From Acidimicrobiales bacterium (GTDB taxonomy: Bacteria; Actinomycetota; Acidimicrobiia; Acidimicrobiales; JBBRAZ01): a DNA stretch of 64,000 bases. The stretch is taken from contig JBBRAZ010000006.1 in assembly GCA_038206295.1 (NCBI GenBank), positions 48,734 through 112,733 on the forward strand, written 5' to 3'. Of the stretch, positions 15,343 to 60,800 are shown in pieces (position 1 is the stretch's first letter; each line of letters begins with the position of its first letter). The notes under the pieces were generated by a model, which searched no databases, was not told the origin of the DNA, and saw only the letters and a program-made list of their open reading frames with translations. The position numbers were made by a program, and so were the translations under genes.

Positions 15343-16332
15343 CTATGGGAGCACGACGAGCTTTCCGGTCGCCCGCCCCGCTTCCATGTCGGCGTGGGCT
15401 TCGGCGATCTCGTCCAGGCGGTACGCGCGGTGGATCGGCACGCGGGCCTCGCCGGCGGCAACCGCGTCGAGGAACTCCTGCAGCACGGCAGGCGACAGAT
15501 CGCTGGCGTCGCCGCCGTAGGCGGTGAGCCGCACACCCCGGGGCAGGTACTCGATCGGGTAGAAGTCGCGCACCGTCCACTGGTTCGACAACATCCCGGT
15601 GAAGCACACCACGCCATGTACCCGCGTTGCCCGGAGCGTGTCGGGCAGCGTTGGTGTCCCGACCAGCTCGAGTGCGGTGTCGACGCCGTCGGGGAGATGC
15701 CGACGGACCTGGGTGGCCACATCGCCGTCGTCCACCAACGGGTACGTCACACCGATCTCGCGCAAGACGTCGGCGCGTTCGGCGTTGCGGGTGGTGGACA
15801 GCACCGTCATGCCGAGCCGCGCAGCGAGCACCGCTGCCGCCATGCCGACCGAGGAGGTGCCGCCGCGGATCAGGATCGACTGACCGGGTCGGGCGTCGAG
15901 GCCAACCGTGAGCGAACCGTGCGCGGTCTGGAGCATCTCGGGTACGGCGCCGAGCGTGGCCCAGTCCAGATCGCTCGTGAACGAAACGGTCTGTCGAACG
16001 GGCACGCACGTGTACTCGGCGTATCCGCCGTCGAACGTGCGGCCCATGCCACCCATCAATGCTGCGACCTGTGCGCCCGGTGCGAGCTCACCACCGGGAC
16101 AGCTCACGACGGTGCCGACGGCCTCGATGCCCAGGACACGAGGGAACGTCACCCCGTCTGCGAGGCCGAGGCGGGTGTGCAGCTCAGAACGGTTGAGCCC
16201 GAACGCTTCGACCTTGATCAGCACCTGACCCAGTTCGGGTGACGGTACGGGCACCTCACGAATCTGCAGCGCGTCAGGCGGCCCTGGCGCGTCGAGGACC
16301 ACAGCGCGCATCGTCGTCGGGTCTCCGTTCAT
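15343..16332 (-). CDS. Zinc-type alcohol dehydrogenase/quinone oxidoreductase (MDR superfamily)
   Basis: ORF track 329 aa: MRAVVLDAPGPPDALQIREVPVPSPELGQVLIKVEAFGLNRSE...GIEAVGTV...ILIRGGTSSVGMAAAVLA...GKLVVLP. Confidence 0.9.
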   Translation of the reverse strand: MNGDPTTMRAVVLDAPGPPDALQIREVPVPSPELGQVLIKVEAFGLNRSELHTRLGLADGVTFPRVLGIEAVGTVVSCPGGELAPGAQVAALMGGMGRTFDGGYAEYTCVPVRQTVSFTSDLDWATLGAVPEMLQTAHGSLTVGLDARPGQSILIRGGTSSVGMAAAVLAARLGMTVLSTTRNAERADVLREIGVTYPLVDDGDVATQVRRHLPDGVDTALELVGTPTLPDTLRATRVHGVVCFTGMLSNQWTVRDFYPIEYLPRGVRLTAYGGDASDLSPAVLQEFLDAVAAGEARVPIHRAYRLDEIAEAHADMEAGRATGKLVVLP

Positions 16333-17463: not shown

Positions 17464-17490
17464 CACAACGTTGTGATTTCGACAACAACC
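17464..17490. repeat. Palindrome-containing motif (CACAACGTTGTG-ATTTCGACAACAACC) abutting tRNA-half copy A
   Basis: cacaacgttgtgatttcgacaacaacc. The first 12 nt form a perfect palindrome. It is closely related to 28520-28553. Confidence 0.7.
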
Positions 17491-17491
17491 A

Positions 17492-17534
17492 GTGGGCGCT
17501 GAGGGACTCGAACCCCCGACCCCCTCCCTGCAAG
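17492..17534 (-). repeat. Copy A of the tRNA-Val 3' half (att-like scar or tRNA pseudogene fragment)
   Basis: gtgggcgctgagggactcgaacccccgaccccctccctgcaag matches 38024-38066 of the intact tRNA-Val at 41 of 43 positions (my count). No matching D-arm or 5' acceptor strand lies upstream. Confidence 0.75.
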
Positions 17535-18133: not shown

Positions 18134-18628
18134 ATGACCACCACCGAACGACATCAACCAGCCATCGAACGTGAAGCGCGCAAAGTCGTCAAGCTCGATC
18201 GCGGCCCGTTCCGGAAGCTCTCTAGTCGGATGCACTGCCGGATGTACCGCCTCACCGGTGGCCGCTTCGGCGGGCAGCTCGATTCGGCGAGTGGCGTCCG
18301 GCCCATCCTGCTGCTCGAAACGACCGGCCGCAGGACTGCTCGCAAGCGAATGACGCCACTCGTGTACCTGCGAGATGGCGAATCCTGGGTCGTGGCCGGC
18401 GCGAACGCCGGGCGCGACACGGATCCGGCCTGGGTCTTCAACCTCCGCAGCGATCCCCACGCCACGATCACCGTCGGCCGCGACGTCATCGATGTCGTTG
18501 CCACCGAGCTCGACCCCGCCGAAGCCCAAGCGATGTGGCCAGCGTTGAATGGCATGAACGCGCAGTACGAGGAGTATCAGAAGCTCACCGATCGAACCGT
18601 GCCCGTGATCCGGTTCCACCGCGACTGA
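18134..18628 (+). CDS. Deazaflavin (F420)-dependent nitroreductase family protein (DUF385-like)
   Basis: ORF 17924..18628. ATG at 18134 follows aggagga. ...MYRLTGGRFGG...ILLLETTGRRTARKRMTPLVYLRDGESWVVAGANAGRDTDPAWVFNLRSDPHATI... is the typical family signature. Confidence 0.85.
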   Translation: MTTTERHQPAIEREARKVVKLDRGPFRKLSSRMHCRMYRLTGGRFGGQLDSASGVRPILLLETTGRRTARKRMTPLVYLRDGESWVVAGANAGRDTDPAWVFNLRSDPHATITVGRDVIDVVATELDPAEAQAMWPALNGMNAQYEEYQKLTDRTVPVIRFHRD

Positions 18629-18679
18629 GCGGCCCGAAGGCACCCTGCTCCGGCCGCTTCCGCAATCGCCGACGGCCAA

Positions 18680-18958
18680 GCGCGCAAGACGTCGGCACGT
18701 TCGGCGTCGCGGGTGGTGGACAGCACCGTCATGCCGAGCCGACCAGCGAGCACGGCGGCCGCCATGCCCACCGAGGAGGTGCCGCCGCGGATCAGGATCG
18801 GCTGACCGGGTCGGGCGTCGAGGCCGACCGTGAGCGAACCGTGCGCCGTCTGGAGCATCTCGGGTACGGCGCCGAGCGTGGCCCAGTCGAGATCGCACGC
18901 GAACGGAACGGTCTGTCGAACGGGCACGCAGGTGCACTCGGCGCAACCGCCGTCGAAC
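18680..18958 (-). pseudogene. Internal fragment of a second MDR quinone-oxidoreductase gene (paralogue of 15343-16332)
   Basis: About 280 nt align colinearly with 15757-16037 at roughly 90 percent identity by eye. Translated, it reads ...CDLDWATLGAVPEMLQTAHGSLTVGLDARPGQPILIRGGTSSVGMAAAVLAGRLGMTVLSTTRDAERADVL. Both gene ends are missing. Confidence 0.8.
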
Positions 18959-18999: not shown

Positions 19000-19326
19000 T
19001 CAACCACAGTCCACGGCAACAGACAAGGCAGCACAGACATCCCGCATGCGCTCGTCGCTCAAGCGGCCGAGGCGATCAACAAGGACAGCGACCGACACGC
19101 TCTCGACCGAGTCGAGGTTGACGGCGCTTCGCCGAGGGACTGGATCGCTACCGGGCTCGAGCAGTACCTCACTCGGCAAGCCTCGGATGGTCGTGGTGCA
19201 CGGGGCGACAAGGGTTCGCCCCAGGCGGGGAATGGCGGCGTCGCGGCTCAACACGAGCACCGGCCGACGGCTGATCTCCGGCAGCTCGCACCACCACAGC
19301 TCGCCCCGCCTTGGCTGATCCTTCAC
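19000..19326 (-). CDS. mazF: Type II toxin, PemK/MazF family endoribonuclease
   Basis: ORF track 108 aa. [30 protein letters not shown]...[15 protein letters not shown] matches the MazF pattern RGdiw..d....g.E....RP.lVls. Confidence 0.85.
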
Positions 19327-19559
19327 GATGCAGCCGCTGCGGCGCGGAACGACGCGAGATCACCCCACTCGTCGGGCTCGTCGATCGGATGCTCGTCGTA
19401 CGCCGCGTAGGCGCCATCCAGCTCCGCGCCTCGATGCTGGGTCAGCAGCGCGTCGAGCGCTAGATCGAACAATGCAGCGTTCGAAGCCACGCCAGTCACC
19501 TCGTGGGCCCGAGTGAGCAGCTCGCCATCAACCGTGGTACTGACGCGTGTGCGAGTCAT
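19323..19559 (-). CDS. Cognate antitoxin (DUF2191/VapB-MazE-like)
   Basis: ORF 19323..19706, ATG at 19559 ([39 protein letters not shown]...). There is a 4-nt overlap with the toxin start. Confidence 0.7.
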
Positions 19560-19586
19560 GGCATAACCATGCCATGACTCGCACAC
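19547..19586. promoter_or_regulatory. Perfect 18-bp inverted repeat with 4-nt spacer spanning the antitoxin start codon (candidate TA operator)
   Basis: gtgtgcgagtcatggcat (19547-19564), spacer aacc, atgccatgactcgcacac (19569-19586). The arms are exact reverse complements. Confidence 0.6.
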
Positions 19587-19765
19587 AGCTGCAACATCAG
19601 CTCTGGGCAGCTCCCTGGATTCCCGACCACGGGCATGGTGCGGTCGTCTTCCGATCGGCACGACGCGGTCGCCTCGATGCCAAGCTGCGCCCGCAGGAGG
19701 TCGCATGGCTCGAACTGGCCGACGGCTGGAACCAGGGTCAAAGCGGTGTCAACGGAGGGCGACGA

Positions 19766-20188
19766 TCACGCGTCGAGCGGATTCGCCACATGAAATCCGC
19801 GGCGCTCCGCTGCATCACATAGTGCTGGGTCCGCACTCGTGACGATGTCCGCCTCAATCAAGAGCGCGGCGGCAAGGTGAACTGCGTCGTAGCCGCGAAG
19901 CGCCTCGTGCTCGGCGAGATCCGCCGCCTCAGCGATCAGCTCTTCGGTGACCTCGACGACGGTCAACCCGTCGAGCAGGCCCACAAGGTCGCGCTTGGCT
20001 GCTCGTTGCGCACTCGCGGTGAGCCGGCCCACTCGCTCAGCAGCCGCGAGCGCAGCGCGCGCCTCCACCACGATCAGGGCAGCTGCCGCCAGCACGTCGG
20101 CCGAGTCCCAGATGAGCGCGGCCTTCTCTGATCCGTCCTCCTCGATCAGCAACTTCAACAGCGAGGACGTGTCGACGTAGGTGATCAC
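19766..20188 (-). CDS. vapC: Type II toxin VapC (PIN-domain ribonuclease)
   Basis: ORF track 140 aa. MITYVDTSSLLKLLIEE... (first acidic residue), ...LRGYDAVHLAAAL..., ...IVTSADPALCDAAERRGF is the classic PIN pattern. Confidence 0.9.
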   Translation of the reverse strand: MITYVDTSSLLKLLIEEDGSEKAALIWDSADVLAAAALIVVEARAALAAAERVGRLTASAQRAAKRDLVGLLDGLTVVEVTEELIAEAADLAEHEALRGYDAVHLAAALLIEADIVTSADPALCDAAERRGFHVANPLDA

Positions 20189-20466
20189 CGCCGCTGTTCG
20201 GCGACCAAGTCGCTGACCGAGCCTGCCGACGTGATTCGTCGTGCCGGGCGGCTCCGCGAGGTCCGCTTTGGAGCTCGAACCACCCCAGACGCGATGAGCG
20301 TCGCCAGCCGGTCCGTTGCGTGGTCGAGCGCGGACAGCCGTGCAACCGGCTTGCCGCGATCGGTCACAACCACGTCCTCGCCCTCCCGTACGCGATCCAA
20401 GTACCGACTCAAGTTGTTCTTGAGGTCGCGAATACCGACCTCAACGTACGGTGTAGCTACATTCAT
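20185..20466 (-). CDS. vapB: Phd/YefM-type antitoxin paired with VapC
   Basis: ORF track 93 aa. VGIRDLKNNLSRYLDRVREGEDVVVTDRGKPVARL is the Phd/YefM N-terminal signature. There is a 4-nt overlap with vapC. Confidence 0.85.
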   Translation of the reverse strand: MNVATPYVEVGIRDLKNNLSRYLDRVREGEDVVVTDRGKPVARLSALDHATDRLATLIASGVVRAPKRTSRSRPARRITSAGSVSDLVAEQRR

Positions 20467-20489: not shown

Positions 20490-20592
20490 ACCGCCATCAT
20501 CAACAGGCTGCTACCCAGCCTTCAGACTCCATTGCGCCGGTTCGTCGCCGTGCTCGTCGACGCAGTTGACGCCGGCTCGCAGTGACAACGAG

Positions 20593-20635
20593 TGGGCGCT
20601 GGGGGACTCGAACCCCCGACCCCCTCCTTGCAAGC
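20593..20635 (-). repeat. Copy B of the tRNA-Val 3' half (possibly part of a 102-nt scrambled tRNA pseudogene, 20593-20694)
   Basis: gtgggcgctgggggactcgaacccccgaccccctccttgcaag matches 38024-38066 at 41 of 43 positions. The T-stem change is compensatory (GGGGG/CCCCC). A GGGCGCT 5' acceptor complement lies at 20688-20694. Confidence 0.75.
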
Positions 20636-25886: not shown

Positions 25887-26376
25887 TGAAGCCTCGTTCC
25901 GATCCGCCCTCGACGGGGGTGGGCTGAGCCCCTTGTAGTGGTCCACCTGTTGTGCGAGTCCGATGCCCCACGATGGGGCGAAGGAGGACCACGACATGTC
26001 CAAGCGACGGCGGCATACGCCTGACCAGATCATCCGCAAGCTCGCCGAGGGCAACAAGCTGCTCGCTGGCGGGACCGAGCTCGACGAGGTGTGCCGGCAC
26101 CTCCAGATCGCCGAGTCGACGTGGCACCGGTGGGTCGCCCAGCACGGCGGCATTTGGCTAGTCAGACCACCCTCGACTGACGCTGCGAGTCCATCGAGAG
26201 GGCTGTCCCCAGCACCCGGGACCCGTCCGAATGGATGTTGGGCACTGGTCGTGTCGGAGGGGGAGACCCCACCGGCCCCCGATGAGCGGCTGGAGGCCGA
26301 CTCACTGTGGGACCGGTGCGATGGTCACGTGCTTGTGGAGGAACTTGCTACTGAGGCGCTCGGAACGCTCGAGTAG
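25887..26376. mobile_element. Internally deleted IS3-family insertion-sequence remnant (boundaries tentative)
   Basis: It contains only the first ~52 codons of an IS3/IS407-type OrfA. Putative imperfect terminal repeats are cgttccgatccgcc (25895-25908) against the rc of ggcgctcggaacg (26355-26367), plus gtagtgg..ccac / gtagcaag..ccac further in. Confidence 0.4.
25996..26152 (+). pseudogene. Truncated IS3-family transposase OrfA (N-terminal HTH only)
   Basis: ATG at 25996 follows aaggagga. MSKRRRHTPDQIIRKLAEGNKLLAGGTELDEVCRHLQIAESTWHRWVAQHGG matches the start of IS3/IS407-group OrfA proteins as I remember them (..FTxEQI..LRE.E.G..V.ELCR..GIS..TFY.WR.KYGG). The sequence then diverges into non-coding-looking DNA. 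Confidence 0.65.
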
Positions 26377-28519: not shown

Positions 28520-28553
28520 TCGAAATCACAACGTTGTAGTTTCGACAACACCC
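28520..28553. repeat. Palindrome-containing motif abutting tRNA-half copy C
   Basis: tcgaaatcacaacgttgtagtttcgacaacaccc. It is a ~26-nt near-palindrome centred on acaac|gttgt. It aligns with 17464-17490. Confidence 0.7.
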
Positions 28554-28583
28554 GTGGGCGCTGAGGGACTCGAACCCCCGACC
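28554..28583 (-). repeat. Copy C of the tRNA-Val 3' end (T-arm plus acceptor only)
   Basis: gtgggcgctgagggactcgaacccccgacc is identical (30/30) to 38024-38053. Similarity is lost beyond the variable loop. Confidence 0.65.
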
Positions 28584-28742
28584 TCTGCCGTGTGAACGAC
28601 GTTCCACTGCCGGTCACGTCTACCTCGATCAGGCGCCGATGGTCGCCAAGGGCCACCGGTCCTCAGGTCGTGCACCGGGCGATGTCGACGGTCGACTCGT
28701 TGGGGCAACCACCCCGTGGTGGACGGCGCCCGTGGCCTGCGC

Positions 28743-29207
28743 TCACGAACGTGGCGAGAGCCGTGCTGCGACTTCGAGAGCAGCAAGCGAGCCTGGGAGC
28801 TCGGTGCGTGCGAGCTGACGAGAGCGGATCCGGACGAGCAGGGCGCGGCGCCAGAAGCTTCGGGGGTGCAGCTCGCACGCGACGGTCACGAGCGCGCCGT
28901 CGGCGCGATCAGCGACCACCCAGGTCCACAGGGCATGGGAGGGGTTGCCGTCGTCGGTGGCTGACCGGTAGGCGAAGCATCGGCCGACGGTGTCGAAGAC
29001 CTCGACTGCTGATCGGCTGTGCCAGCGCTGACCGAGGGCATGCATCGCGACGACCCACTGGGCACCGACGTCGAGGTGGTCGGGTCGTTCGAGGACGGAG
29101 GTGATCGCGTCGTTCCAGTCCGGGAGGCGCGCGATGTCGGTGATCGTGTCGAAGACGTCGTCGGGTGATGCAGCGACGACGCGCGAGGCGCTTGCGTGGC
29201 TGGTCAT
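28743..29207 (-). CDS. SRPBCC (START/polyketide cyclase-dehydrase-like) family protein
   Basis: ORF track 154 aa. ...VVAASPDDVFDTITDIARLPDWNDAITSV...WVVAMHALGQRWHSRSAV... is the typical SRPBCC N-terminal pattern. Confidence 0.75.
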   Translation of the reverse strand: MTSHASASRVVAASPDDVFDTITDIARLPDWNDAITSVLERPDHLDVGAQWVVAMHALGQRWHSRSAVEVFDTVGRCFAYRSATDDGNPSHALWTWVVADRADGALVTVACELHPRSFWRRALLVRIRSRQLARTELPGSLAALEVAARLSPRS

Positions 29208-29225
29208 GATCGTGGCCGCCGGCGC

Positions 29226-29588
29226 TCAGTAGCTGAAGGTCGTTGCGCCGTCGCCGATCCACTCCCACATCGGGATGGTGCCTTGGAGCTCGGCGCCCGC
29301 GATGAGCGTGCTGTTGTCGAGCTCCTTGGCGTTGAAGCACACCGGGCAGACGAAGTAGCGGCCGCCGGCGGCCTCGTAGCGCTTGACGAGGTCGGCGAGG
29401 GGCGGGCAGCCGTCGCATGCGACGCCGATCGCGATGCCGACGAGGCCGAGGCGCACGGCTTCCTTGGAGAGGAACATGAGGGTCTCGCGACCGGACTCGG
29501 CGGCGCCGACGGCAACGAGGTACGCGACGGTGACCTTCTCGGGGTCCTCGAGCCCGGTGGTCAGGGAGATGACTGCCTTGTTCGCCAT
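29226..29588 (-). CDS. DsrE/DsrF-like sulfur-relay family protein
   Basis: ORF track 120 aa: MANKAVISLTTGLEDPEKVTVAYLVAVGAAESGRETLMFLSKEAV...YFVCPVCFNAKELD.... Confidence 0.8.
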   Translation of the reverse strand: MANKAVISLTTGLEDPEKVTVAYLVAVGAAESGRETLMFLSKEAVRLGLVGIAIGVACDGCPPLADLVKRYEAAGGRYFVCPVCFNAKELDNSTLIAGAELQGTIPMWEWIGDGATTFSY

Positions 29589-29701
29589 GGTGCTTCCTCT
29601 CGGCTGTGCAGGGTTGGTGCATCGTCGAACATCAGGAGGCCTGAGAGTGGAGATCCCATGGCCAGCTCGACGTGGATGGTTTGAACACCCAAGGAGGAAG
29701 G

Positions 29702-29750
29702 TACGGAGGTCGCGCCGCCGGGTCGTCCGGTGTTCGCCCTACAAATCGAG
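29702..29750. repeat. ~49-nt direct repeat, copy 1 (contains the last codons and stop of the LuxR-type gene)
   Basis: The 25-nt core tccggtgttcgccctacaaatcgag (29726-29750) is identical to 32273-32297. The flanking 24 nt are about 60-80 percent similar (tacgga..gggtc). Confidence 0.75.
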
Positions 29751-31313
29751 GGGTTCGAGCGAGTCCAGCAGTCCGTTCTGCATGGCGAACAGCGTGGCCG
29801 TCGATCGCGTCGAGGCGCCGATCTTGACGTAGATCCGCTCGATGTGGGTGCCCGCCGTCTTGGGGGTGATGCCCAGCTTCTGGGCGACCTGACGATTCGA
29901 CGCTCCCCGCGAGATGAGCGTCAGGACCTCGATCTCCCGCGGCGTCAGGCCAGCGGGTCCGGCGGCCCGCTTCGGTCGGCGCTCCCCGGCGGCGACGAGC
30001 ACCGCGTCAACGGCGTCGGCAGCGAGGCGACCGGCGCGAACCTCGCTGCGAAGCTCGCCCGCCGCTTCCTTCCCGGAGCGCGCGGGCCTGTAGGCGCGGG
30101 GCTCGCGCATCGCCTGGTACGCGCATGCCGCTGCGAGGATCCGCCCGAGGGTGGGGATCGCTGATCCGGACAGGCCCCGGTGATAGCCCGACCCGTCGAG
30201 GCGTTCGTTCGCCATCGACGCGATGGCACCGATCCGCGCCAGAGCCGGTGGCCGCGCAAGGGTCCGTTCTGTGTAGTACGAGTGCATCCGCATCCGTTCG
30301 GATTCGGTCGCCGTCAGCGGGCCGGGCTTGTCGAGGATGTTCGACGGCACGCCGTGCATGCCGACGTCATGCACCAGGCCGGCGCGGCGGAGCAGCATCA
30401 GGTCCTCGGGAGCGAGGCCGCACGACTCCCCCGCTCGAGCTGCGAGGTCGGCGACCGCGCGCGAATGGCCTGATCGGCATCGTGAGCGCAGGTCGGTGAA
30501 GTCGGCGATCGCCTCCAGCGCGGTGTCGAGCTGCGACTCGGTGAGCCGCTGCTGCAGCCTCGGGTCGCTCGCGATCTCGGCGGCAAGATCCGGTATGTCG
30601 TCCATGCCCCGGAACAGCTCGTCCGCGGCAGCACAGAACTCGTCGACGATCGACGGGTCGAACTGCTTGCCCCGCCGTGACCGGGCCAGCTCGACCGCAG
30701 CGTCGGCGCCGCCGTGCTGATGGAACACCTCGACGTTGTCGGCCAGCTGGAACAACCGAATCGACCGGGCGATCTCCTCGCCGCCGATGCCGCTGGGGAC
30801 CCCTGTGCCGTCCCATCGGGTGAAGACCTGTTGCAGCGGGTCGCACACCTCCTCGCCGAGCCCGAGACGCTGCGCCATCTGCGCGGTGGTGAGGCAATGC
30901 GCCATCAGCCCGCGCTCGATCGCCTTGCCGCCGGTCGCGACGAGCGTGCCGGCGAGACGCAGCCGGTTCAAGGCCGGGCTTCCGAGGCCCACGTGACGCA
31001 GCGCGAAGCGCTGCATGGGCAGGCCGGCGAAGTCCACCTCGTAGCTGTCACGACGGAACGCGATGTCGTCGCCGAACCAGGTGGCGACCTCCGGGGTGTC
31101 GGCCACGCACCCCACCCACGCCAACATCACCACGTAGTACAGCGCAGCGGCGTCGTCGTTCTCGATGCCCATGCGGTCGCCGAGACGGGTCGCGATCACC
31201 CACGAGCGCAGCACGTGCTCCATCGGCTGGCCCATGCCGAGATCCGTCGCCAGCGAGAAGGCGGCAACGACCTCGGCCAAGCGGACGCCCGAATCTCGCT
31301 GGTCGGATGACAC
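29739..31313 (-). CDS. Transcriptional regulator with two HD(-GYP-like) domains and a C-terminal LuxR-type HTH
   Basis: ORF track 524 aa. It shows ...ALYYVVMLAWVGCV.. and ..LLRRAGLVHDVGMHGVP...ERMRMHSYYTERTL...ANERLDGSGYHRGL (HD-domain-like). The C-terminal LTPREIEVLTLISRGASNRQVAQKLGITPKTAGTHIERIYVKIG is a LuxR/FixJ HTH. Confidence 0.85.
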   Translation of the reverse strand: MSSDQRDSGVRLAEVVAAFSLATDLGMGQPMEHVLRSWVIATRLGDRMGIENDDAAALYYVVMLAWVGCVADTPEVATWFGDDIAFRRDSYEVDFAGLPMQRFALRHVGLGSPALNRLRLAGTLVATGGKAIERGLMAHCLTTAQMAQRLGLGEEVCDPLQQVFTRWDGTGVPSGIGGEEIARSIRLFQLADNVEVFHQHGGADAAVELARSRRGKQFDPSIVDEFCAAADELFRGMDDIPDLAAEIASDPRLQQRLTESQLDTALEAIADFTDLRSRCRSGHSRAVADLAARAGESCGLAPEDLMLLRRAGLVHDVGMHGVPSNILDKPGPLTATESERMRMHSYYTERTLARPPALARIGAIASMANERLDGSGYHRGLSGSAIPTLGRILAAACAYQAMREPRAYRPARSGKEAAGELRSEVRAGRLAADAVDAVLVAAGERRPKRAAGPAGLTPREIEVLTLISRGASNRQVAQKLGITPKTAGTHIERIYVKIGASTRSTATLFAMQNGLLDSLEPLDL

Positions 31314-31357
31314 CGCGGCAGCCTATGGGGGCGGTGGATCCGCGTGCTGTCCGCCGC

Positions 31358-32134
31358 TCACGTCGGCTTGGTGGCGAGGAACACGTGTGCGTACACGTCG
31401 AAGGTGCGGGCGTTGCGCTCGCCTCCTGAGCCGCCGAACGCGTCGATGGCCGGCCCAACGGAGATGTCGGTGAAGCCAGCGTCGGTGAGCAGGGTGCACC
31501 AATCGTCCACGGGCTTGCCCCCACCGACGCATCCGGTCCACAGGTCGATGTTGCACACGGCCTGTTCGGGGAGCGGCTTGCCGTTGGCGATGTCGGCGAA
31601 CTGGATGTGCCCGCCGGGCTTGAGTGCCCGGTACGCCTGGGCGAGCACCGCCGCCTTGTCGGCGACGAGGTTGATGACGCCGTTGGCGATGACCACGTCT
31701 GCCCAGCTGTCCTCGACGGGGAGCTCTTCGAGGATGCCGTCGCGGAACTCGACGTTGACGAGTCCGAGCTGATCAGCGGTCTCGGTGGCCTTGGCGAGCA
31801 TCTCCGGGGTCATGTCCACGCCGATGACCGCGCCATCGGCGCCGACCGCTCGAGCGGCGACGAAGCAGTCGAACCCGCCACCCGAGCCGAGATCGACGAC
31901 GTGCTCACCGGGCTCCAGGGGCCGCACGGCGTGGGGGTTGCCGACGCCGGCGAAGGACTCGACCGCCCGATCGGACAACGTATCGACCACGGTCGAGTCG
32001 TAGCCGAGGAGCTCAGCGAGCGGCCTACCCGTGTGGAAGTGGAAGTCCCCTCCAGGATCGGTTGCTACGTCCTTGTACTTGTCGCGCACGTTGGCTCGAA
32101 GGGCCTCGGGATCGACGCTGATCGTGTTGTGCAC
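31358..32134 (-). CDS. SAM-dependent methyltransferase, ArsM (arsenite methyltransferase)-like
   Basis: ORF track 258 aa. ...VRDKYKDVATDPGGDFHFHTGRPLAELLGYD... is followed by SAM motif VVDLGSGGGFDCF. ...VIANGVINLVADK... and LKPGGHIQFADI resemble ArsM/UbiE-type enzymes. Confidence 0.8.
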   Translation of the reverse strand: MHNTISVDPEALRANVRDKYKDVATDPGGDFHFHTGRPLAELLGYDSTVVDTLSDRAVESFAGVGNPHAVRPLEPGEHVVDLGSGGGFDCFVAARAVGADGAVIGVDMTPEMLAKATETADQLGLVNVEFRDGILEELPVEDSWADVVIANGVINLVADKAAVLAQAYRALKPGGHIQFADIANGKPLPEQAVCNIDLWTGCVGGGKPVDDWCTLLTDAGFTDISVGPAIDAFGGSGGERNARTFDVYAHVFLATKPT

Positions 32135-32248
32135 CGCTCGCCTCCACTGTTGGGTGCCAGGCGTCTGCCTGGGCTGAGCCGCATCAGCTCCTTCACCGGC
32201 GGGGCCGGGCTGACTCGAGGGCGCTCCGGAGCACCCACACGGTCAACC

Positions 32249-32297
32249 TACGGACGTGCGAGGCGCGGGTCATCCGGTGTTCGCCCTACAAATCGAG
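32249..32297. repeat. ~49-nt direct repeat, copy 2 (abuts the truncated antitoxin fragment)
   Basis: See 29702-29750. Confidence 0.75.
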
Positions 32298-32472
32298 CGA
32301 CCGGACGGGCGACCGGACAGGAGGAGTGCCACCTGAGCGAGCGCGACGTCGTGAAGATGAAAGAGCGCTGCACGGCGCGGCGCCGCCGGGCGGCCTCGAC
32401 CAGATCCGGGAACTCGGGGTTCTTCACCGACCGCGCACGGACGATCTCGTCGAGGAAGTCATCGTTGTCCAT
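32298..32472 (-). pseudogene. Frameshifted, truncated higA-like antitoxin
   Basis: The rc from ATG 32472-32470 reads MDNDDFLDEIVRARSVKNPEFPDLVEAARRRRAVQRS. The homologous continuation (RALSSSRRRALAQVALLLSGR) is in the +1 frame. Compare with the intact 37169-37483. Confidence 0.6.
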
Positions 32473-32527
32473 GCTCACCTCTCAGGCATCTGGTTGCAGA
32501 GAGAGTAGTCCCAGCCAAAGACCAGAC

Positions 32528-32563
32528 ATGAGTCTTGACTCATTATGAGTTATTCGTCATACT
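32528..32563 (+). promoter_or_regulatory. AT-rich promoter/operator of the RelE/XRE pair: 16-bp palindrome over the -35, -10 CATACT 6 nt before the GTG (leaderless geometry)
   Basis: atgagtcttgactcat (32528-32543) is a perfect palindrome containing TTGACT (32535-32540). A 17-nt spacer precedes catact at 32558-32563, and the GTG is at 32570. Confidence 0.5.
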
Positions 32564-32569
32564 GCGGAA

Positions 32570-32926
32570 GTGTGGGACGTAGAGGTCACCGACGAGTTCA
32601 TCGAGTGGTGGGAGCAGCTCAACGTCGACCAGCAGGAATCACTCACCGACCGCGTCGATCTGCTCGCGGAGCGCGGACCCGACCTCGGTCGACCGGTGGT
32701 CGACCGAATCCAAGGGTCACGGCATCACAACATGAAGGAGCTGCGTGCCAGCAGCGACGGCGCTCTGAGGGTGCTGTTCATGTTCGATCCCCGACGGCAG
32801 GTCATCGTGCTCGTCGGCGGCGACCCATCGGGGGCGTGGGTCGAGTGGTACCGGCAGGCCATACCTCTAGCGGATGACCTGTACGACCGATACCTCGAAG
32901 AGCTACGAGATGAGGGGCTGATCTGA
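32570..32926 (+). CDS. Type II toxin, RelE/ParE superfamily (HigB-like)
   Basis: ORF track 118 aa. ...LGRPVVDRIQGSRHHNMKELRASSDGALRVLFMFDPRRQVIVLVGGDPSG...WYRQAIPLADDLYDRYL is typical of this toxin family. Confidence 0.85.
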   Translation: MWDVEVTDEFIEWWEQLNVDQQESLTDRVDLLAERGPDLGRPVVDRIQGSRHHNMKELRASSDGALRVLFMFDPRRQVIVLVGGDPSGAWVEWYRQAIPLADDLYDRYLEELRDEGLI

Positions 32927-33255
32927 TGGCACGAACCAAGTTCTCCGAGCTGCGCAAGGGTGTGGACGCGCGGCCGGGGGCCGCTGAGCGGCTGGCCACC
33001 AAGCGCGCTGAGACCCTCGAGGAGATCCGTCTCTACGAGCTGCGCCACCAGGAGGCCGTCAGCCAGGCGGCTCTGGCCGGGCGCCTCGACGTCACCCAAG
33101 GGGCGATCTCGAAGCTCGAGAGCTCGGAGGACGTGCGCGTCTCGACGCTTCGCCAGTACCTCGAAGCGCTCGGCGCACGACTGGAGCTCATCGCCGTCTT
33201 CGACGATGAGAACCGTCGTGTGCCGATCCAGCTCGGCAAGGGCACCGCCGCCTGA
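32926..33255 (+). CDS. XRE-family HTH antitoxin
   Basis: ORF track 109 aa. ...HQEAVSQAALAGRLDVTQGAISKLESSEDVRVSTLRQYLEALGARLELIAVF is the HigA-like pattern. The start overlaps the toxin stop. Confidence 0.85.
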   Translation: MARTKFSELRKGVDARPGAAERLATKRAETLEEIRLYELRHQEAVSQAALAGRLDVTQGAISKLESSEDVRVSTLRQYLEALGARLELIAVFDDENRRVPIQLGKGTAA

Positions 33256-33470
33256 GGAGCTGCGCCACCGCGGATGCGTGCGGCTCTGCTGTCGACTCTG
33301 AAGTCCTGGCCGTAGACAAAGTTCAGAGTCCAAGCCGCAGGAGCGGGCGGTCAGGCGACAGCCGCCGTGGCACAGCCGAAATCCGGGCATTGGAGTTGAC
33401 CCGGTTCGTCGAGACCGCGCCGAGATGTCGTCCACTACCGTGGGGTGACGACAGCGGGGGTGACAGGGCC

Positions 33471-35342
33471 ATGTCGACGACCAAGGGGCGCAGCGCTGTC
33501 GTCGTGATCGTGCTCCTCGGAGCGAGCCTCGCGTCGACAGCGCCAGGTGGGGGCGCGGGAGGTCGTATTGCCGGCTTCGTCGACGTACCGGCCAGCCACC
33601 CGTTCGTGGAGGAGATCGAGTGGCTCGTCGATGAGGGCATCGCCGCCGGCTACCCCGACGGCACGTTCCAACCCGCGCTGCCAGTGACCCGGGGCGCCAT
33701 GGCGGCGTTCCTCTGGCGCTTGGCACACCCGGACGTGGGCGCCGCGCCGGCGTGCTCTACCGAGCCCTTCCCAGACACCTCGATGCTGAACCAATTCTGC
33801 GGCGAGATCGCGTGGCTGGTGGCTGCCGGCATCGCGTCAGGCTTCGATGACGGCACCTTCCGTGCCGAATCACCCGTGTCACGCCAAGCGATGGCCGCGT
33901 TCCTCCGTCGAGCATCTGGTGACCCCTCACCAAGTACGCCAACCGTCGCACCGTTCTCCGACGTACCGACGTGGCATCCGTTCGCGCCGGACATCGACTG
34001 GCTCGCCGCCACCGGTATCGCTGGGGGCTTCGCCGACGGCTCGTTCCAGCCGACGACCGCCGTCTCACGTCAGGCCATGGCGGCATTCCTCCTTAGGCTC
34101 ACGCGACACCGATGGACGGCGACCACCACCCTCGTCTCGGTCGCCCCCGACGGCTCCGTCGGGAACCTCTCCTCCGACTGGGGCGTGATCTCCGCCGACG
34201 GCAGATACGTCGCCTTCAGCTCGGGGGCGACAGATCTCGTCGCCGGCGACACAAACGGCGACCAGGACATCTTCCTGTGGGAGCGAGCTACCGCCACCAC
34301 AGTCCGGATTTCGATTGCGTCCGATGGCACCGAGGCTGACGGACCCTCCTCAAGACCAGCGATCTCCAATGACGGCCGCTACGTCGCCTACGAGTCCGGA
34401 GCGACCAACCTCGTCGCCGGCGACACAAACGGGCAGGACGACATCTTCCTATGGGATCGAGCGACGAGCTCGACCACCCGTGTGTCAGTCGGGGTCGGTG
34501 GCGTCCAGGCGGGCGGGCGCTCCCGCTCAGCCACCATCTCAGGGGACGGTCGACTCATCGCCTACCGATCCGACGCGGCGAACCTCGTGCCCATCGATGC
34601 CAACTTCCGCACGAACGACATCTTCCTGCTCGATCGAGCCGCGGGGACGACCTCATTGCTGTCGCTGGCCCCCGATGGCTCGGCCGCGGACGCCGCGTCG
34701 GACTCCCCGGATCTGTCCGCCGACGGCCGGTATGTCGCCTACCGATCGGACGCGTCGAATCTGGTGCCAGGCGACTCGAACGGCACGTACGACGTGTTCG
34801 TGGCCGACCTCGAGGCGGGCACAACCAAGCGGGAGTCGGTCGCATCGGATGGGACCCAAGGAAACGACCGGTCGTTCTGGCCGCACCTCTCCGCCGACGG
34901 CAGCTATCTCGCGTTCACGTCCGAGGCATCAAACCTCGTGGCTTCCGACAACAACGGACTCGAGGACGGTTTCCTCGTCGACCGTAGGACAGGCCTCGTG
35001 CGCTTGGTCACCGCCTCCCCTACCGGCGCCTCCGGTAACGGGCAGAGCTACGCGACCGCGATTTCCGCCGATGGTCGCTTCGTCGCCTTCTACGGCGGGT
35101 CGACCAACCTCGTCGTCCCAGACGTCAACGGCCTCTGGGATGCGTTCGTGTGGGACCGAGTCACAGGAACGACGAAGCTCGCCTCCGTTTCGTCCGCTGG
35201 GGAGCAGGGCGACGATCACTCGGGCCCAGTGTCGATCTCCGGCAACGGCCGGTACGTCGTCTACCACTCGTTCGCCACAAACCTCGTGGCCGACGACACA
35301 AATGGTCGACCTGACGTATTCCTCTGGGATCTGGGGCCCTGA
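33471..35342 (+). CDS. Secreted surface protein: signal peptide, three SLH domains, then ~8 PD40/TolB-like beta-propeller repeats
   Basis: ORF 33390..35342, ATG at 33471 (MSTTKGRSAVVVIVLLGASLAS). The SLH units are FVDVPASHPFVEEIEWLVDEGIAAGYPDGTFQP, FPDTSMLNQFCGEIAWLVAAGIASGFDDGTFRA and FSDVPTWHPFAPDIDWLAATGIAGGFADGSFQP. These are followed by repeated ..DGRYVA(F/Y)xSxAxNLVxGDTNGxxDIFLWDRxTxTT.. units. Confidence 0.85.
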   Translation: MSTTKGRSAVVVIVLLGASLASTAPGGGAGGRIAGFVDVPASHPFVEEIEWLVDEGIAAGYPDGTFQPALPVTRGAMAAFLWRLAHPDVGAAPACSTEPFPDTSMLNQFCGEIAWLVAAGIASGFDDGTFRAESPVSRQAMAAFLRRASGDPSPSTPTVAPFSDVPTWHPFAPDIDWLAATGIAGGFADGSFQPTTAVSRQAMAAFLLRLTRHRWTATTTLVSVAPDGSVGNLSSDWGVISADGRYVAFSSGATDLVAGDTNGDQDIFLWERATATTVRISIASDGTEADGPSSRPAISNDGRYVAYESGATNLVAGDTNGQDDIFLWDRATSSTTRVSVGVGGVQAGGRSRSATISGDGRLIAYRSDAANLVPIDANFRTNDIFLLDRAAGTTSLLSLAPDGSAADAASDSPDLSADGRYVAYRSDASNLVPGDSNGTYDVFVADLEAGTTKRESVASDGTQGNDRSFWPHLSADGSYLAFTSEASNLVASDNNGLEDGFLVDRRTGLVRLVTASPTGASGNGQSYATAISADGRFVAFYGGSTNLVVPDVNGLWDAFVWDRVTGTTKLASVSSAGEQGDDHSGPVSISGNGRYVVYHSFATNLVADDTNGRPDVFLWDLGP

Positions 35343-35648
35343 AGCACGGCGCGGCAGGTCGTCTCGGTCGCACTGCGATGGCCTCTTGGACAGCGTTCAC
35401 CCAATGCAGCAGCGGGTGAGCGGGGCGTCAACTCGGTTGGCTGGACCGACCTCTACCAATGTCAACTGCACAAGCAGCAGGCCCGGCAGCCTCGGCATCG
35501 AGCAGCCCGTCCATCGTCCAGACCGCTCTGCCGAGGTCACTGGTCGTCTCGCATCATCGGGGGTGTCAGCGTGCGCCCGGGTCCTGGTCGGTAGATGGGG
35601 TCTGCTTGCCGCGTCGGCAGGCGCTTCGTGGGCACCTGCGGCCGTGGT

Positions 35649-36338
35649 TCACCCACTTGCAGCCACGCGACACAAGAACGTGCCTGACTGCTCCTGCGCT
35701 CCGAATCCGACTTCGAGAAGGTGAACGGTTAGCGCGCAGTCACCTGTCGCCCCAGCAAATCTGCCGGTTCCGGACTCGATGACGAGGTCGTAGTCGTCGC
35801 CGCTGCTCGTCGTCGCCGCCTCGCTCTCGAACGACCCTGCCAACGTTCCATCGGGGCCGGTCAACGTGAACGTCCCCTCACCCGACCACAGGTCACCGTG
35901 GAGCACGCCGCAGTAGTCGGCCACATGGGACAACGTCGTCCCGTCGTCGAGCACCCACGTCGTCTCGAGGTGGTGGGTGAGGTGCGGGCACCGCTGGCCG
36001 GCGAGCGACCAATGCTCGATCCCTGCATAGGTTCCGCTGAAGGGCAACGAGGCGGGCAGGGGTGGTGCGGGGGGCGACGTCGCAGGCGGGGCGGGTGCCT
36101 CGGGAGTCGTGACCTGCGGCGGGGGAACGACCGACGTGGTTGTCGTCGCAGGCTCCTCCACCCACGTCGTGTCCGTCGTCGACGTCCCCGGAAGGGTCGT
36201 GGGCACACTCGCGGTGGTTGTCGATACCGACACCGTGGTCGACGTCGAGTCGTCGCCCCCCGGTGCATCGCCGGTGGCGACGTACGCACCGGAACCGCAT
36301 GCTGCGAGCGTCAGCCCGAGGAGGGCTGACGTCAGCAA
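35649..36338 (-). CDS. Lipoprotein with Thr/Pro-rich linker and C-terminal beta-barrel-like domain
   Basis: ORF track 229 aa. It starts at a TTG at 36338, with no upstream in-frame ATG/GTG before a stop. The lipobox is LTLAACGS. The C-terminal ...GTFTLTGPDGTLAGSFESE...VIESGTGRFAGATGDCALTV resembles dirigent/AOC-barrel-like proteins (weak recollection). Confidence 0.65.
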   Translation of the reverse strand: MLTSALLGLTLAACGSGAYVATGDAPGGDDSTSTTVSVSTTTASVPTTLPGTSTTDTTWVEEPATTTTSVVPPPQVTTPEAPAPPATSPPAPPLPASLPFSGTYAGIEHWSLAGQRCPHLTHHLETTWVLDDGTTLSHVADYCGVLHGDLWSGEGTFTLTGPDGTLAGSFESEAATTSSGDDYDLVIESGTGRFAGATGDCALTVHLLEVGFGAQEQSGTFLCRVAASG

Positions 36339-36547
36339 TCCCGGCCTCGATTGCCGGCGGCGTGGAGCGGAGGGTGGAACCTCCGCACGCTACCGCCCTC
36401 AACGCACCCGTACCCGCGCGTCCTGGTCGCTGGGCCAACTCCACCTACTGCGCCACGCCGCACGCACCCTCAACGAGTTCGTGGTGCCCGAACATCGTCG
36501 CCGGGTCGCCGCTGCGCGACGATGTCATAGACAGAAGGAGCGATCTC

Positions 36548-37138
36548 GTGGCCCTACGACAGCGGCTACTCAGGGGCGTCGTTGCTGGCTCGTTGCTCGC
36601 CCTAGCGACCGCTGTGGGCATCGCAATCGCTGTCGCAACTTCGTCCTCTGCAGGTGACCCCGGGACGGTCGCTCGTATCGATGTGGATCAGATCGAAGAG
36701 GGCGTGCACGCCACGAACGTGCTCGACCGCGCAGCGATCATCGCGCGGGACGGCGACGAGATCGCCGTCTTCTTCCCTCTCTCCCCCCACTTCGACGGCA
36801 GCAGACACATCGACTGGTGCGACGAAGCTGGTGTGTTCGTCGAATGGGAAGGTGGATCGATTTGGACGCGAGGCGGGAAGAAGCTCAGCGGACCGACACC
36901 ACGGTCTCTGGACCGCTACCCATCACACGTTGATGGGGATGTTCTCGTCGTCGACCTCAGCACCATCGAGTACCGGGACGTGTTCGACCGCGAGGTAGAT
37001 GCCCCACCTGGCTTCGACGGTGGCCGCTCAAACGTGCTTGTCGGCCAGCCCGCGACTGACTACCTCTACACCGACGCATGGGCGAGATCGTTCGCCGCGG
37101 CGCCGAAGTGGTGCCCGGACCCTGATCGCCTTTCGTAG
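36548..37138 (+). CDS. Membrane-anchored protein with Rieske-fold-like domain lacking the Cys/His cluster ligands
   Basis: A GTG at 36548 lies 7 nt after agaaggag, in frame with ORF 36140..37138. VALRQRLLRGVVAGSLLALATAVGIAIAV is a TM anchor. ...AVFFPLSPHFDGSRHIDWCDEAGVFVEWEGGSIWTRGGKKLSGPTPRSLDRYPSHVDGDVLVVD parallels CPHxGC...CPCHGSxF...GPAxxxLxxYxVxxxGDxLxV. Confidence 0.55.
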   Translation: MALRQRLLRGVVAGSLLALATAVGIAIAVATSSSAGDPGTVARIDVDQIEEGVHATNVLDRAAIIARDGDEIAVFFPLSPHFDGSRHIDWCDEAGVFVEWEGGSIWTRGGKKLSGPTPRSLDRYPSHVDGDVLVVDLSTIEYRDVFDREVDAPPGFDGGRSNVLVGQPATDYLYTDAWARSFAAAPKWCPDPDRLS

Positions 37139-37168
37139 CACCAGGCCGACACGGGTCGGCGGTCCCGG

Positions 37169-37483
37169 TCAGGCGCTACGGCGTGGCCGCGCGCGTTCCG
37201 CCGACAGGACGAAGTCGACCCGCTGGCCGACGGCAGCCGCGTAGCGCTCGATCGTCGACAGCCGGGCGTCGACGTCAGCTGACTCGAGCCTGGCAACGGC
37301 AGACTGCGACGTGCCCATGCGCCCGGCGACCAACGTCTGCGAGAGGCCGAGCTCCTCGCGGCGCGCTGCGAGCGAGCGCAGAAGCTCGCGGCGCCGCAGC
37401 GCTGCTTCGACCAACTCCGGGAACTCCGCGTTCTTCGCCGAGCGCTCCCGGATGATCTCGTCGAGGAAGTCACCACCACTCAT
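37169..37483 (-). CDS. higA: XRE-family HTH antitoxin (HigA-like)
   Basis: ORF 37169..37489. ATG at 37483 follows gtgaggtg. MSGGDFLDEIIRERSAKNAEFPELVEAALRRRELLRSLAARREELGLSQTLVAGRMGTSQSAVARLES.... Confidence 0.85.
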   Translation of the reverse strand: MSGGDFLDEIIRERSAKNAEFPELVEAALRRRELLRSLAARREELGLSQTLVAGRMGTSQSAVARLESADVDARLSTIERYAAAVGQRVDFVLSAERARPRRSA

Positions 37484-37531
37484 ACGCACCTCACGTGTAT
37501 CTCGTTTCTGAGATACTACTGTAGGGATCCG

Positions 37532-37885
37532 TCATGGGCTACCCCGGGATCGGGAGCGCCAGTCCTTGAGCCGCCGCTCAGCCAGCCGAATGGTCTCTGG
37601 GGGTGTCTTCTGCGACTTCTTCGAGATGCCCTCCAGCGCAAGGAGCACCTGCGCGGCCTTCCCCTCTGAGGCGAACAGGATGCGGAACGCCTGCCGATCT
37701 CCATCGGCGCGTACCTCGTAGAGGTCGTCGCGCAGGTGGCGTGCGGCCGGCAGACCTTCCAGCTGCACCTCCTTCATCGCCGCGACGACCGCAGCAGCAT
37801 CAGCGTCGCTCAAGTCGCCGATGAACTCCCTCACGGGCCGACGGCCAGCCGCAGTTCGGTAGTCACGCCATCGCCGCTTCGCCAT
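37532..37885 (-). CDS. higB: Type II toxin, RelE/HigB-like (Gp49/DUF891-type)
   Basis: ORF 37532..37945, ATG at 37885. MAKRRWRDYRTAAGRRPVREFIGDLSDADAAAVVAAMKEV...LYEVRADGDRQAFRILFASEGKAAQVLLALEGISKKSQKTPPETIRLAERRLKDW is the classic pattern. A -10-like TACTCT lies 6 nt upstream of the ATG. Confidence 0.85.
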   Translation of the reverse strand: MAKRRWRDYRTAAGRRPVREFIGDLSDADAAAVVAAMKEVQLEGLPAARHLRDDLYEVRADGDRQAFRILFASEGKAAQVLLALEGISKKSQKTPPETIRLAERRLKDWRSRSRGSP

Positions 37886-38021
37886 GTCCGCAGAGTACGA
37901 GTGCCAGTGAGAGCTCCCGACCCCGCTTCTTGCCTGTGCCGCCATCGAGTTCCGGTGTCAGCCTCGGTGGCAACCGGGGAGCGAGATCCGTGCCCTCGAT
38001 CGCGTCCTCCCAGGTCAGACG

Positions 38022-38098
38022 TGGTGGGCGCTGAGGGACTCGAACCCCCGACCCCCTCCTTGTAAGGGAGGTGCTCTAGCCAGCTGAGCTAAGCGCCC
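38022..38098 (-). tRNA. tRNA-Val (anticodon TAC), CCA encoded
   Basis: The rc reads GGGCGCT TA GCTC AGCTGGCTA GAGC A CCTCC CTTACAA GGAGG GGGTC GGGGG TTCGAGT CCCTC AGCGCCC A CCA. The acceptor has 7 bp. The D, anticodon and T arms all pair, and the anticodon loop is CT-TAC-AA. Confidence 0.9.
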
Positions 38099-56849: not shown

Positions 56850-57767
56850 GTGACCGCCCCCTACGGTGCCCCAGATCCAACCACCGTCCTCGGCCGCCGC
56901 GTGGTGGCCTACCTCATCGACTGGACGCTGCTGCTCGCGCTGCTGTTCGTGCCGATCTTGTCCAACGCGGTGAGCTTCGACGAACGTCCCTTCGCCGGCT
57001 ACTCCCCGTCGGGCTTCTACTCGATCGAGGAGGCGACCGGCGAGAGCCGGCTCCAGGTCGCGACGGCGTCGGGCATCACGACGTTCGAGGGCGACGACAT
57101 GATCTACGTGGCCGACGACGGCACGGGCTTCATCGTGCGCAGCGCGGACCTCGCCACGGGGTTCCTCCTGTACCTCGGCGTGGCGTTCGTCATGTTCGTC
57201 GTCCTGCAGGGCCTCACCGGCGCCACCTTGGGCAAGCTCCTCGTCGGCGTCCGGGTCGTGAACGCCGAGGGCAGGCCTCCTGGCCTCGGCCGCGCCTTCC
57301 TTCGCTCGATCCTGTGGGTCGTCGACGGCGCCTTCTGCGGGCCGCTCATCGGCTTCATCGCCGCCAGCGCATCGAAGGGTCACCGCCGCGTCGGCGACAT
57401 GGCGGCGAAGACCTTCGTGGTGCGCACCTCCGACACCGGTCAGCCGATCGCGATCCCGGGCCTCACCACACCGGTGGTCCCCGCCGGTGGCTGGGCGGCG
57501 CCACCGAGCGCGTACGCCCCGACGTCCGCCCCCCTCGCTCCGCCGCCCGCAGCAGCACCTCGCGGCGCCGACCTCGAAGGCGTCGGATTCGCTGCCGCGA
57601 CCGGCGCGGCGCCTGCCGCCCCTGCACCTGCCGCCAGCAGCGGCGGAGGCGACCCGACCCAGCCGACGTGGGACCCGCAGCGCAACGCCTACATCGCGTG
57701 GGACGCCGACGAGCAGACGTGGAAGCAGTTCGACGACGCCACCCAGGCGTGGTCCCCGATCACCTGA
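56850..57767 (+). CDS. RDD-family membrane protein with Pro/Ala-rich linker and Trp-rich C-terminal motif
   Basis: ORF 56715..57767. I use the GTG at 56850 because earlier starts would overlap the glyQS start. ...[22 protein letters not shown]..., ...[33 protein letters not shown]...[15 protein letters not shown]. The C-terminus is [33 protein letters not shown]. Confidence 0.75.
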
Positions 57768-60788: not shown

Positions 60789-60800
60789 CCAGGAGCACCC

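Follow-up and report, generated by a model that had tools for sequence, protein, structure and literature searches.

The S-layer homology (SLH) proteins of the Firmicutes, such as Sap and EA1 of Bacillus anthracis and SpaA and SlhA of P. alvei, possess a signal peptide and, after it, three SLH domains in tandem, through which they are anchored to a secondary cell-wall polymer (SCWP) by a salt bridge between an arginine side chain and a pyruvate ketal. Three residues of the SLH domain contact the ligand: SLH-Arg43, part of the TRAE motif, binds the pyruvate ketal, SLH-Gly29, part of the GIIxG motif, permits a flip of the peptide backbone and SLH-Trp13 stacks on N-acetylmannosamine (ManNAc) (PMC6081394). 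TolB, the S9 peptidases and the tricorn protease have in common a beta-propeller with a sequence signature known as PD40. Integrative elements, for their part, target the 3′ ends of transfer RNA (tRNA) genes, where islands may accrete in tandem. Here we describe a gene located at positions 33471–35342 (+ strand) of the 64,000-nucleotide stretch of DNA presented above (contig JBBRAZ010000006.1, referred to in what follows as the window) that encodes a 623 amino acid protein with three SLH domains and a PD40 propeller. Taking all the evidence together, we consider it probable that this is a wall-anchored SLH propeller protein whose gene is carried, with unrelated neighbours, as cargo of an island at a tRNA-Val gene.

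The presence of a secreted 623 amino acid protein with three SLH domains and a series of PD40 repeats, as put forward in the original prediction, is borne out by the open reading frame (ORF), by inspection of the signal sequence and by Pfam. The N-terminus of the protein (MSTTKGRSAVVVIVLLGASLASTAP) has a charged n-region followed by a hydrophobic core and appears, by inspection, to be a putative export signal occupying approximately residues 1–25. The SLH domain (PF00395) is matched in three stretches at 120.9 bits (cut-off 20.8) and PD40 (PF07676) at 54.9 bits (cut-off 20.9). A local hidden Markov model (HMM) built from the three SLH units places SLH1 at 33570–33719, SLH2 at 33762–33911 and SLH3 at 33948–34097, and detects no further SLH unit in a six-frame translation of the window. 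The remainder of the protein (approximately 34125–35339) comprises repeats of around 58 amino acids with the form SxDGRYVAFxSxAxNLVxGDTNGxxDxFxxD. About eight such repeats had been proposed but the correct number is seven, as judged by the anchor residues (241, 299, 357, 416, 474, 532 and 590), by the seven repeat copies seen in the DNA at a spacing of 174–177 nt and by the blades of the modelled structure. The AlphaFold model, made using 20 sequences (predicted local distance difference test (pLDDT) score 82.9), consists of three helix pairs and, C-terminal to these, seven blades of four strands each, with no other domain, and the blades are consensus-like, being 34–59% identical to one another. 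The overall G+C content of the window is ~69%. Rfam identifies three tRNAs only, with no riboswitch 5′ of the SLH-PD40 gene, and neither terminators nor informative promoters were found in the 32.3–38.2 kb region.

The SLH triplet is homologous to that of B. anthracis Sap (structures 6bt4 and 3pyw, E ~1e-8), allowing the ligand-contacting residues to be compared one by one. Two of the three are conserved. SLH-Arg43 is kept in all three units, where the sequences TRGA, SRQA and SRQA align with TRAE, DRVS and TKAE in Sap, and so is SLH-Gly29 (GIAAG, GIASG and GIAGG). SLH-Trp13, on the other hand, is replaced by proline, glutamine and proline in the three units, with phenylalanine next each time. 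The tryptophan of an EWL sequence was considered as a conserved SLH-Trp13 and was ruled out by residue-level alignment. This pattern extends well beyond the window protein. In a clade survey covering 211 SLH units from the 120 nearest relatives, SLH-Gly29 was found in every unit (211/211) and tryptophan at the SLH-Trp13 position in none (0/211), with the sequence x-P-F present in 136 of the 211; the TRAE position reads [ST]R[QG]A, its [ST]R being conserved in 211/211. The clade therefore differs from the Firmicute SLH proteins in having proline or glutamine plus phenylalanine for SLH-Trp13 and [ST]R[GQ]A for TRAE. The window protein, with its signal peptide and three tandem SLH domains, resembles those proteins in layout but has a single PD40 propeller as passenger, where the Firmicute S-layer proteins have a lattice-forming domain, and belongs to an actinobacterial host. 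From the conservation of SLH-Gly29 and SLH-Arg43, the Firmicute principle of anchoring, in which arginine and the pyruvate ketal of an SCWP are joined by a salt bridge, would be expected to apply to the window protein also, and charge-based anchoring is likely to have been retained. The sequences HPF in the SLH-Trp13 region and [ST]RQA in place of TRAE can be regarded as marking an actinobacterial SLH subtype; no characterisation of actinobacterial SLH proteins was found in the searchable literature.

The view that the SLH domains are exotic to the host of this DNA is not supported by comparison with other lineages. Searches with the SLH triplet alone matched 414 proteins and the named relatives, with 45–56% identity, come from Acidimicrobiia metagenome-assembled genomes (MAGs), Nitriliruptor, Actinotalea, Microbacteriaceae, Rathayibacter and Brachybacterium. 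When the propeller part is considered by itself, relatives with 45–52% identity number in the thousands and come from many phyla; the majority are double propellers and a few have C-terminal SLH domains. The sole SLH locus recovered by a scan of genome contigs is a distant one, in an Acidimicrobiia MAG. One Acidimicrobiia MAG (GCA_020832495.1) is rich in SLH genes: a single contig encodes four SLH proteins within 15 kb and a second contig has an additional SLH gene, giving at least three SLH proteins beyond an SLH-PD40 pair. That pair includes the closest full-length relative found, a 648 amino acid protein (JAFIEP010000134.1, L007:12444–14390) with 44% identity over 591 amino acids that is colinear with the window protein from SLH1 through to blade 7. 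It matches the window protein in length class and in the succession of signal peptide, three SLH domains and seven blades, and is followed by a tandem paralogue (46%). Comparing the two proteins blade by blade reveals no positional orthology and hence provides no dating information. The context of the 648 amino acid homologue is unlike that of the window gene: around it are the tandem paralogue, further SLH proteins and a regulator of the LuxR type, but neither toxin–antitoxin (TA) pairs nor a lipoprotein or Rieske-like gene of the kind described below.

These relationships agree with reviews that count the Actinobacteria as one of the phyla in which SLH domains are most abundant (PMC6030368, PMC6801904, PMC6081394) and with a report that SLH and CsaB, the latter a pyruvyltransferase, are retained in some Actinobacteria (bioRxiv 10.1101/2021.05.31.446380). 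SLH domains are not exotic here, because the nearest triplets are actinobacterial, an Acidimicrobiia MAG has several SLH genes and the reviews include the Actinobacteria. SLH-anchored propeller proteins are a family that recurs in Acidimicrobiia-type Actinomycetota, and the window protein is an ordinary accessory member of it. The original prediction was to be refuted if SLH proteins and csaB proved common and vertically inherited in this lineage, with the locus syntenic in relatives, and the outcome is divided: SLH proteins do occur commonly in what is probably the lineage concerned, whereas synteny was not found. The gene content of the window is itself actinobacterial, including F420-dependent enzymes, an MST/DinB-type protein, WS/DGAT, DUF3152 and a dnaG...glyS...recO-uppS neighbourhood. 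Eight window proteins, RpoD, DnaG and RecO among them, form singleton clusters at 90% identity, indicating that the collections contain no close sequenced relatives of the source, and the source genome is not a GTDB species representative; its probable class, the Acidimicrobiia, is judged solely by the identity of its best homologues. In relatives, SLH genes are also paired with other propeller heads, namely FG-GAP and RCC1 (L006:10001–12029 and L007:4110–7592), so that this group may have a whole range of propellers anchored by SLH domains.

The evidence that the SLH-PD40 gene has been acquired horizontally, as originally suggested, comes from its position with respect to a tRNA-Val(TAC) gene (38022–38098, − strand; identified by ARAGORN, Rfam tRNA 69.7 bits). 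This gene, the presumed integration site (attB side), adjoins the right-hand TA pair described below and has its 3′ end (38022) facing the SLH cluster. Three copies of the 3′ end are found further to the left, all on the − strand: a 30-nt copy of 38024–38053 with 100% identity at 28554–28583, a 39-nt copy with 97% identity at 20592–20630 and a 36-nt copy with 100% identity at 17492–17527, the last being the outermost attachment site (att)-like repeat found in the window. In total, four matches to the tRNA 3′ end are observed in the window versus 0.00 expected in shuffled sequences, and all are in the same orientation. The copies can be read as dividing an island into three segments, with 20592–20630 at the boundary of segments C and B and 28554–28583 forming the distal boundary of the tRNA-proximal segment A. 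Segment A (28584–38021, 9.4 kb) holds the SLH-PD40 gene together with genes for an SRPBCC protein, a DsrE-like protein, an HD/LuxR regulator and a methyltransferase, a truncated antitoxin and two TA pairs. Its mean G+C content at third codon positions (GC3) is 0.825, compared to 0.917 to the right of the tRNA gene (Mann-Whitney p = 5e-5), and the averages for the three segments are 0.81–0.83, which is below both the right flank (0.917, p = 4e-7) and the left flank (0.872, p = 0.004). Because the tRNA-Val gene adjoins the cluster, copies of its 3′ end are repeated and GC3 deviates, we conclude that integration is very probably how the segment was acquired.

In several respects the region resembles described tRNA-associated islands that have grown by tandem accretion, with a tRNA gene at one end, direct copies of its 3′ end, deviant composition and TA and insertion sequence (IS) cargo. 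It differs from typical tRNA islands in that no integrase or excisionase is left and in the shortness of its segments (3–9 kb), which points to heavy decay. In the older segments are found a PemK/MazF toxin, a PIN toxin with a Phd antitoxin and a helix-turn-helix (HTH) fragment of an IS3-type transposase (19000–20466 and 25963–26376). Immediately outside two of the att-like fragments, at 28530–28553 and 17468–17491, lie 22–24 nt that are similar to each other (ACGTTGTrrTTTCGACAACAACC) and unlike the sequence beside the real tRNA gene, which may hint at related elements or at a longer att identity segment. At 18577–18927 (− strand) is a near-duplicate, encoding around 115 amino acids, of part of the zinc-type alcohol dehydrogenase gene at 15343–16224 (− strand), some 2.5 kb away; the duplicated fragment and the end of a gene for an F420H2-dependent quinone reductase overlap.

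A number of observations weigh against this account, some bearing on the island and others on the anchor. Neither the called genes of the island (E <= 1e-5) nor six-frame translations of the gaps (E <= 0.01) were found to contain an integrase or recombinase, the search for integrase remnants in the gaps having yielded a TetR C-terminal fragment only, and as a result integration is inferred solely from its scars. To the left of 17.5 kb, GC3 is likewise lower than in the core, and composition by itself does not settle the matter. None of the tested window proteins clusters with another protein at 90% identity, and an empty tRNA-Val site could not be shown for want of a closely related genome. 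As far as the anchor is concerned, loss of the stacking tryptophan across the entire clade means that the binding groove is altered and that the ligand may differ from 4,6-pyruvyl-ManNAc. No pyruvyltransferase (PS_pyruv_trans, PF04230, the CsaB family) was found in the scanned part of the window, comprising the called genes of 1–32 kb and ten genes of 38–64 kb searched with Pfam, the other 38–64 kb genes having been recognised by eye as housekeeping without a Pfam scan. Nor was a pyruvyltransferase gene present within 10 kb of those SLH relatives examined on long contigs, a result that says nothing of whole genomes.

The alternative that survives these comparisons best, whilst still being unlikely in our view, is that the locus is native and vertically inherited, the tRNA-fragment repeats being the scars of transient elements, with the SLH gene and the genes beside it long established in a variable part of the chromosome. 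SLH-PD40 proteins are after all a feature of the lineage, SLH relatives elsewhere are found in core contexts (L010), the GC3 of the SLH-PD40 gene (0.81) falls inside the range of the left flank and there is no integrase. Set against this, the gene sits between an att-like repeat and the tRNA gene, where integrated DNA is found, the GC3 of the island differs significantly from that of both flanks, and TA modules and gene fragments abound in the segment. Acquisition by integration at the tRNA-Val gene is therefore the reading that we prefer.

What the propeller might do once displayed can be approached through its fold relatives. Among solved structures, those closest to it in fold are S9 peptidase propellers with seven blades, the propeller of TolB and oligogalacturonate lyase, with identities of 12–18%. 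With PF07676 above threshold and a seven-bladed model, the protein is a PD40 beta-propeller, and it shares the PD40 signature with TolB, S9 peptidases and the tricorn protease, the first two being among the best structural matches. It is nonetheless not TolB, in which a six-bladed propeller is combined with an N-terminal alpha/beta domain and which has Tol-Pal partners: the window protein has seven blades and an SLH N-terminus and scores only 20.7 bits against the TolB equivalog (TIGR02800, cut-off 343). Nor is it an S9 peptidase of the prolyl-oligopeptidase type, since these have a catalytic alpha/beta-hydrolase domain with a Ser-Asp-His triad, whereas here Pfam, NCBIfam and the model agree that the protein stops at blade 7 with no peptidase domain. 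More generally, neither Pfam nor NCBIfam finds any enzyme family or catalytic domain in the protein. The propeller is most likely a binding or scaffold surface displayed on the wall. The idea that the propeller is itself a wall-anchored enzyme, for instance a lyase or hydrolase similar to the seven-bladed oligogalacturonate lyases, draws on its fold match to 3c5m and 3pe7 (template modelling (TM) score 0.62 on the target) and on the frequent role of SLH domains as anchors for enzymes (PMC6030368 and other reviews). We regard it as very unlikely, however: identity to the lyases is only 12–13%, the non-catalytic propellers of TolB and the S9 peptidases match equally well or better, no enzyme family is recognised and the blades are consensus-like.

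The SLH-PD40 gene and its two immediate neighbours are flanked by TA loci. On the left, a Gp49/HigB-like toxin gene (32570–32926, + strand; PF05973, E = 5e-18) precedes a gene for an Xre-type HTH antitoxin (32926–33255, + strand; HTH_31/HTH_3). On the right, the genes for a Gp49/HigB-like toxin (37532–37885, − strand; PF05973, E = 1.4e-14) and a HigA-like HTH antitoxin (37169–37489, − strand; HTH_3, E = 6e-9) have the same arrangement, so that in both pairs the toxin is encoded upstream of the antitoxin. The original prediction was thus right in placing a TA locus on each side, but what had been labelled relE/xre and higBA are both of one kind, consisting of a Gp49/HigB-type toxin with an HTH antitoxin, and by sequence both appear to be type II modules of the HigBA/Gp49-HTH class, in which a PF05973 toxin precedes an Xre-type HTH antitoxin. 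The possibility that the two pairs are the terminal repeats of a single element was rejected, as the toxins are only 28% and the antitoxins 37% identical. Unlike standard HigBA modules, a third copy in the window is reduced to the ribosome-binding site and first 40 codons of a higA-like antitoxin gene (32363–32502, − strand), with no toxin upstream. This truncated copy is 76% identical at the nucleotide level and 65% at the amino acid level to 37374–37518, the two forming an imperfect direct repeat of ~140 nt (32363–32507 and 37374–37518, 76%) that brackets a 5-kb block. This arrangement suggests rearrangement or insertion at a TA locus within the island.

Between the SLH-PD40 gene and the right-hand TA pair lie two further genes. 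The first (35649–36338, − strand) encodes an orphan, putative lipoprotein of 229 amino acids, with a lipobox (LAAC), a Thr/Pro-rich linker (21 threonines and 17 prolines in 80 residues) and a C-terminal domain of ~130 amino acids with four cysteines. Its description as a Thr/Pro-rich lipoprotein holds for the ORF, lipobox and linker and is less secure at the N-terminus, where only 13 residues, none of them charged, precede the lipobox cysteine and the position of the 5′ end is doubtful. In frame and 5′ of the TTG start codon, within 35649–36390, is the sequence PRRRQSRPG, which would make an ideal signal-peptide n-region but is found behind TAG and TGA stop codons; the 5′ part of the gene may thus have been lost. 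The protein has no Pfam or NCBIfam match, and for the C-terminal domain neither a homologue in a word-indexed search of 5.8 billion proteins nor a meaningful sequence match in the PDB was found.

The second gene (36548–37138, + strand) has a strong Shine–Dalgarno sequence (GAAGGAG) and encodes a protein of 196 amino acids with an N-terminal helix (residues 2–32), in keeping with its earlier description as a membrane-anchored protein. It has no Pfam match and a metagenome scan found no relatives, but a profile of its family (P0250–P0395), which is sparse with 147 representative clusters, matches Rieske domains in the PDB (E = 6e-13), and the predicted structure (pLDDT 86) superposes on soluble Rieske domains with TM scores of 0.63–0.71 (Foldseek). 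The fold is thus one that it has in common with Rieske [2Fe–2S] domains (9rk3, 9rk4, 8hn2 and PetC), and its N-terminal membrane anchor resembles that of the Rieske subunits of bc1/b6f complexes. Unlike those proteins, the family lacks the iron–sulphur cluster ligands: the Rieske CxH...CxCH sequences are replaced by sphlegee and eplsgs in the family profile and by SPHFDG and WEGGS in the window protein. In their place the family has two invariant cysteines, Cys91 and Cys189, which are the only cysteines in the window protein.

These two neighbours had been proposed to be partners of the SLH-PD40 protein in a surface module, a proposal for which we find no evidence. The lipoprotein-like gene is convergent with the SLH-PD40 gene and the Rieske-fold gene is then divergent, and this alternation of strands makes for three transcription units rather than an operon. 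In seven SLH/PD40 loci (L001–L007) searched by sequence, no relative of either neighbour, nor of the TA genes, was found; a further four loci (L008–L011) were viewed only via the Pfam labels of their called genes, labels that are blind to the two Pfam-less neighbours. The lipoprotein-like and Rieske-fold genes are accordingly best regarded as independent cargo, linked to the SLH-PD40 gene by adjacency only. The stronger version of the proposal, that a three-gene surface module was imported from a distant SLH-using lineage such as the Firmicutes or the cyanobacteria, the ligand for SLH domains possibly being absent from the wall of the recipient, could appeal to the adjacency of the genes, to the predicted extracytoplasmic location of all three products, to the position of the segment within an integrated island and to the lack of csaB in the scanned parts of the window, but is the least probable of the explanations considered here, given the alternating strands, the lack of homologues of the lipoprotein domain, the absence of the neighbours from the vicinity of every SLH/PD40 relative searched, the actinobacterial or Acidimicrobiia origin of the nearest SLH triplets and of the only colinear full-length homologue, and SLH units that bear the clade-specific HPF/SRQA sequences rather than the HW/TRAE of the Firmicutes.

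The mechanism that we favour for the SLH-PD40 protein, then, would be as follows. Following export by the Sec pathway, the three SLH domains would fold into the usual pseudo-trimer and hold the protein non-covalently on a peptidoglycan-linked, negatively charged and probably pyruvylated SCWP, with the seven-bladed propeller displayed outward as a binding or scaffold surface. The gene would have arrived among the cargo of a composite island at tRNA-Val(TAC), in the 9.4-kb segment closest to the tRNA gene, the island having been built by at least three successive integrations, rearranged afterwards at its TA genes and now without its integrase, with the Gp49/HTH pairs acting as addiction modules typical of such islands.

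Taken by itself, the SLH-PD40 gene represents one more accessory SLH-anchored surface protein, but its wider context may be of some importance. An SLH clade without one of the three ligand-binding residues defined in Firmicutes offers a clean test of the generality of the rule that SLH domains bind pyruvylated SCWP. The tandem att scars point to envelope proteins travelling on small tRNA-Val islands in a lineage without cultured close relatives, and the cluster-less Rieske-fold neighbour belongs to a family of ~150 representative clusters for which there is no Pfam model. A bolder and decidedly tentative suggestion, towards which we remain sceptical, is that in Acidimicrobiia-type Actinomycetota the HPF/SRQA subtype of SLH domain hangs various propeller heads (PD40, RCC1, FG-GAP) on a non-Firmicute wall polymer, with the heads being swapped between strains via small tRNA islands. 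Were this the case, it would amount to an uncharacterised, mobile outer protein coat in a poorly known class.

Several other features of the window deserve mention. A short ORF at 13064–13381 (− strand) encodes RCC1 repeats with nothing attached; as L007 in the Acidimicrobiia MAG encodes an 1160 amino acid RCC1-fn3-SLH surface protein, the ORF may be the remnant of a gene of this sort. The gene at 8248–9360 (+ strand) encodes a hemerythrin-domain protein with a long, very basic and repetitive tail, rich in lysine, alanine, threonine and serine, that includes the sequence AKRTSTQAKRAATTTGRTASKAAK. At the other end of the window, 56850–58656 and 60354–61427 (both + strand) encode tandem RDD-family membrane proteins with similar proline-rich C-terminal tails that end in a tryptophan-rich motif, and two lipoproteins encoded by genes adjoining these have cupredoxin-like domains.

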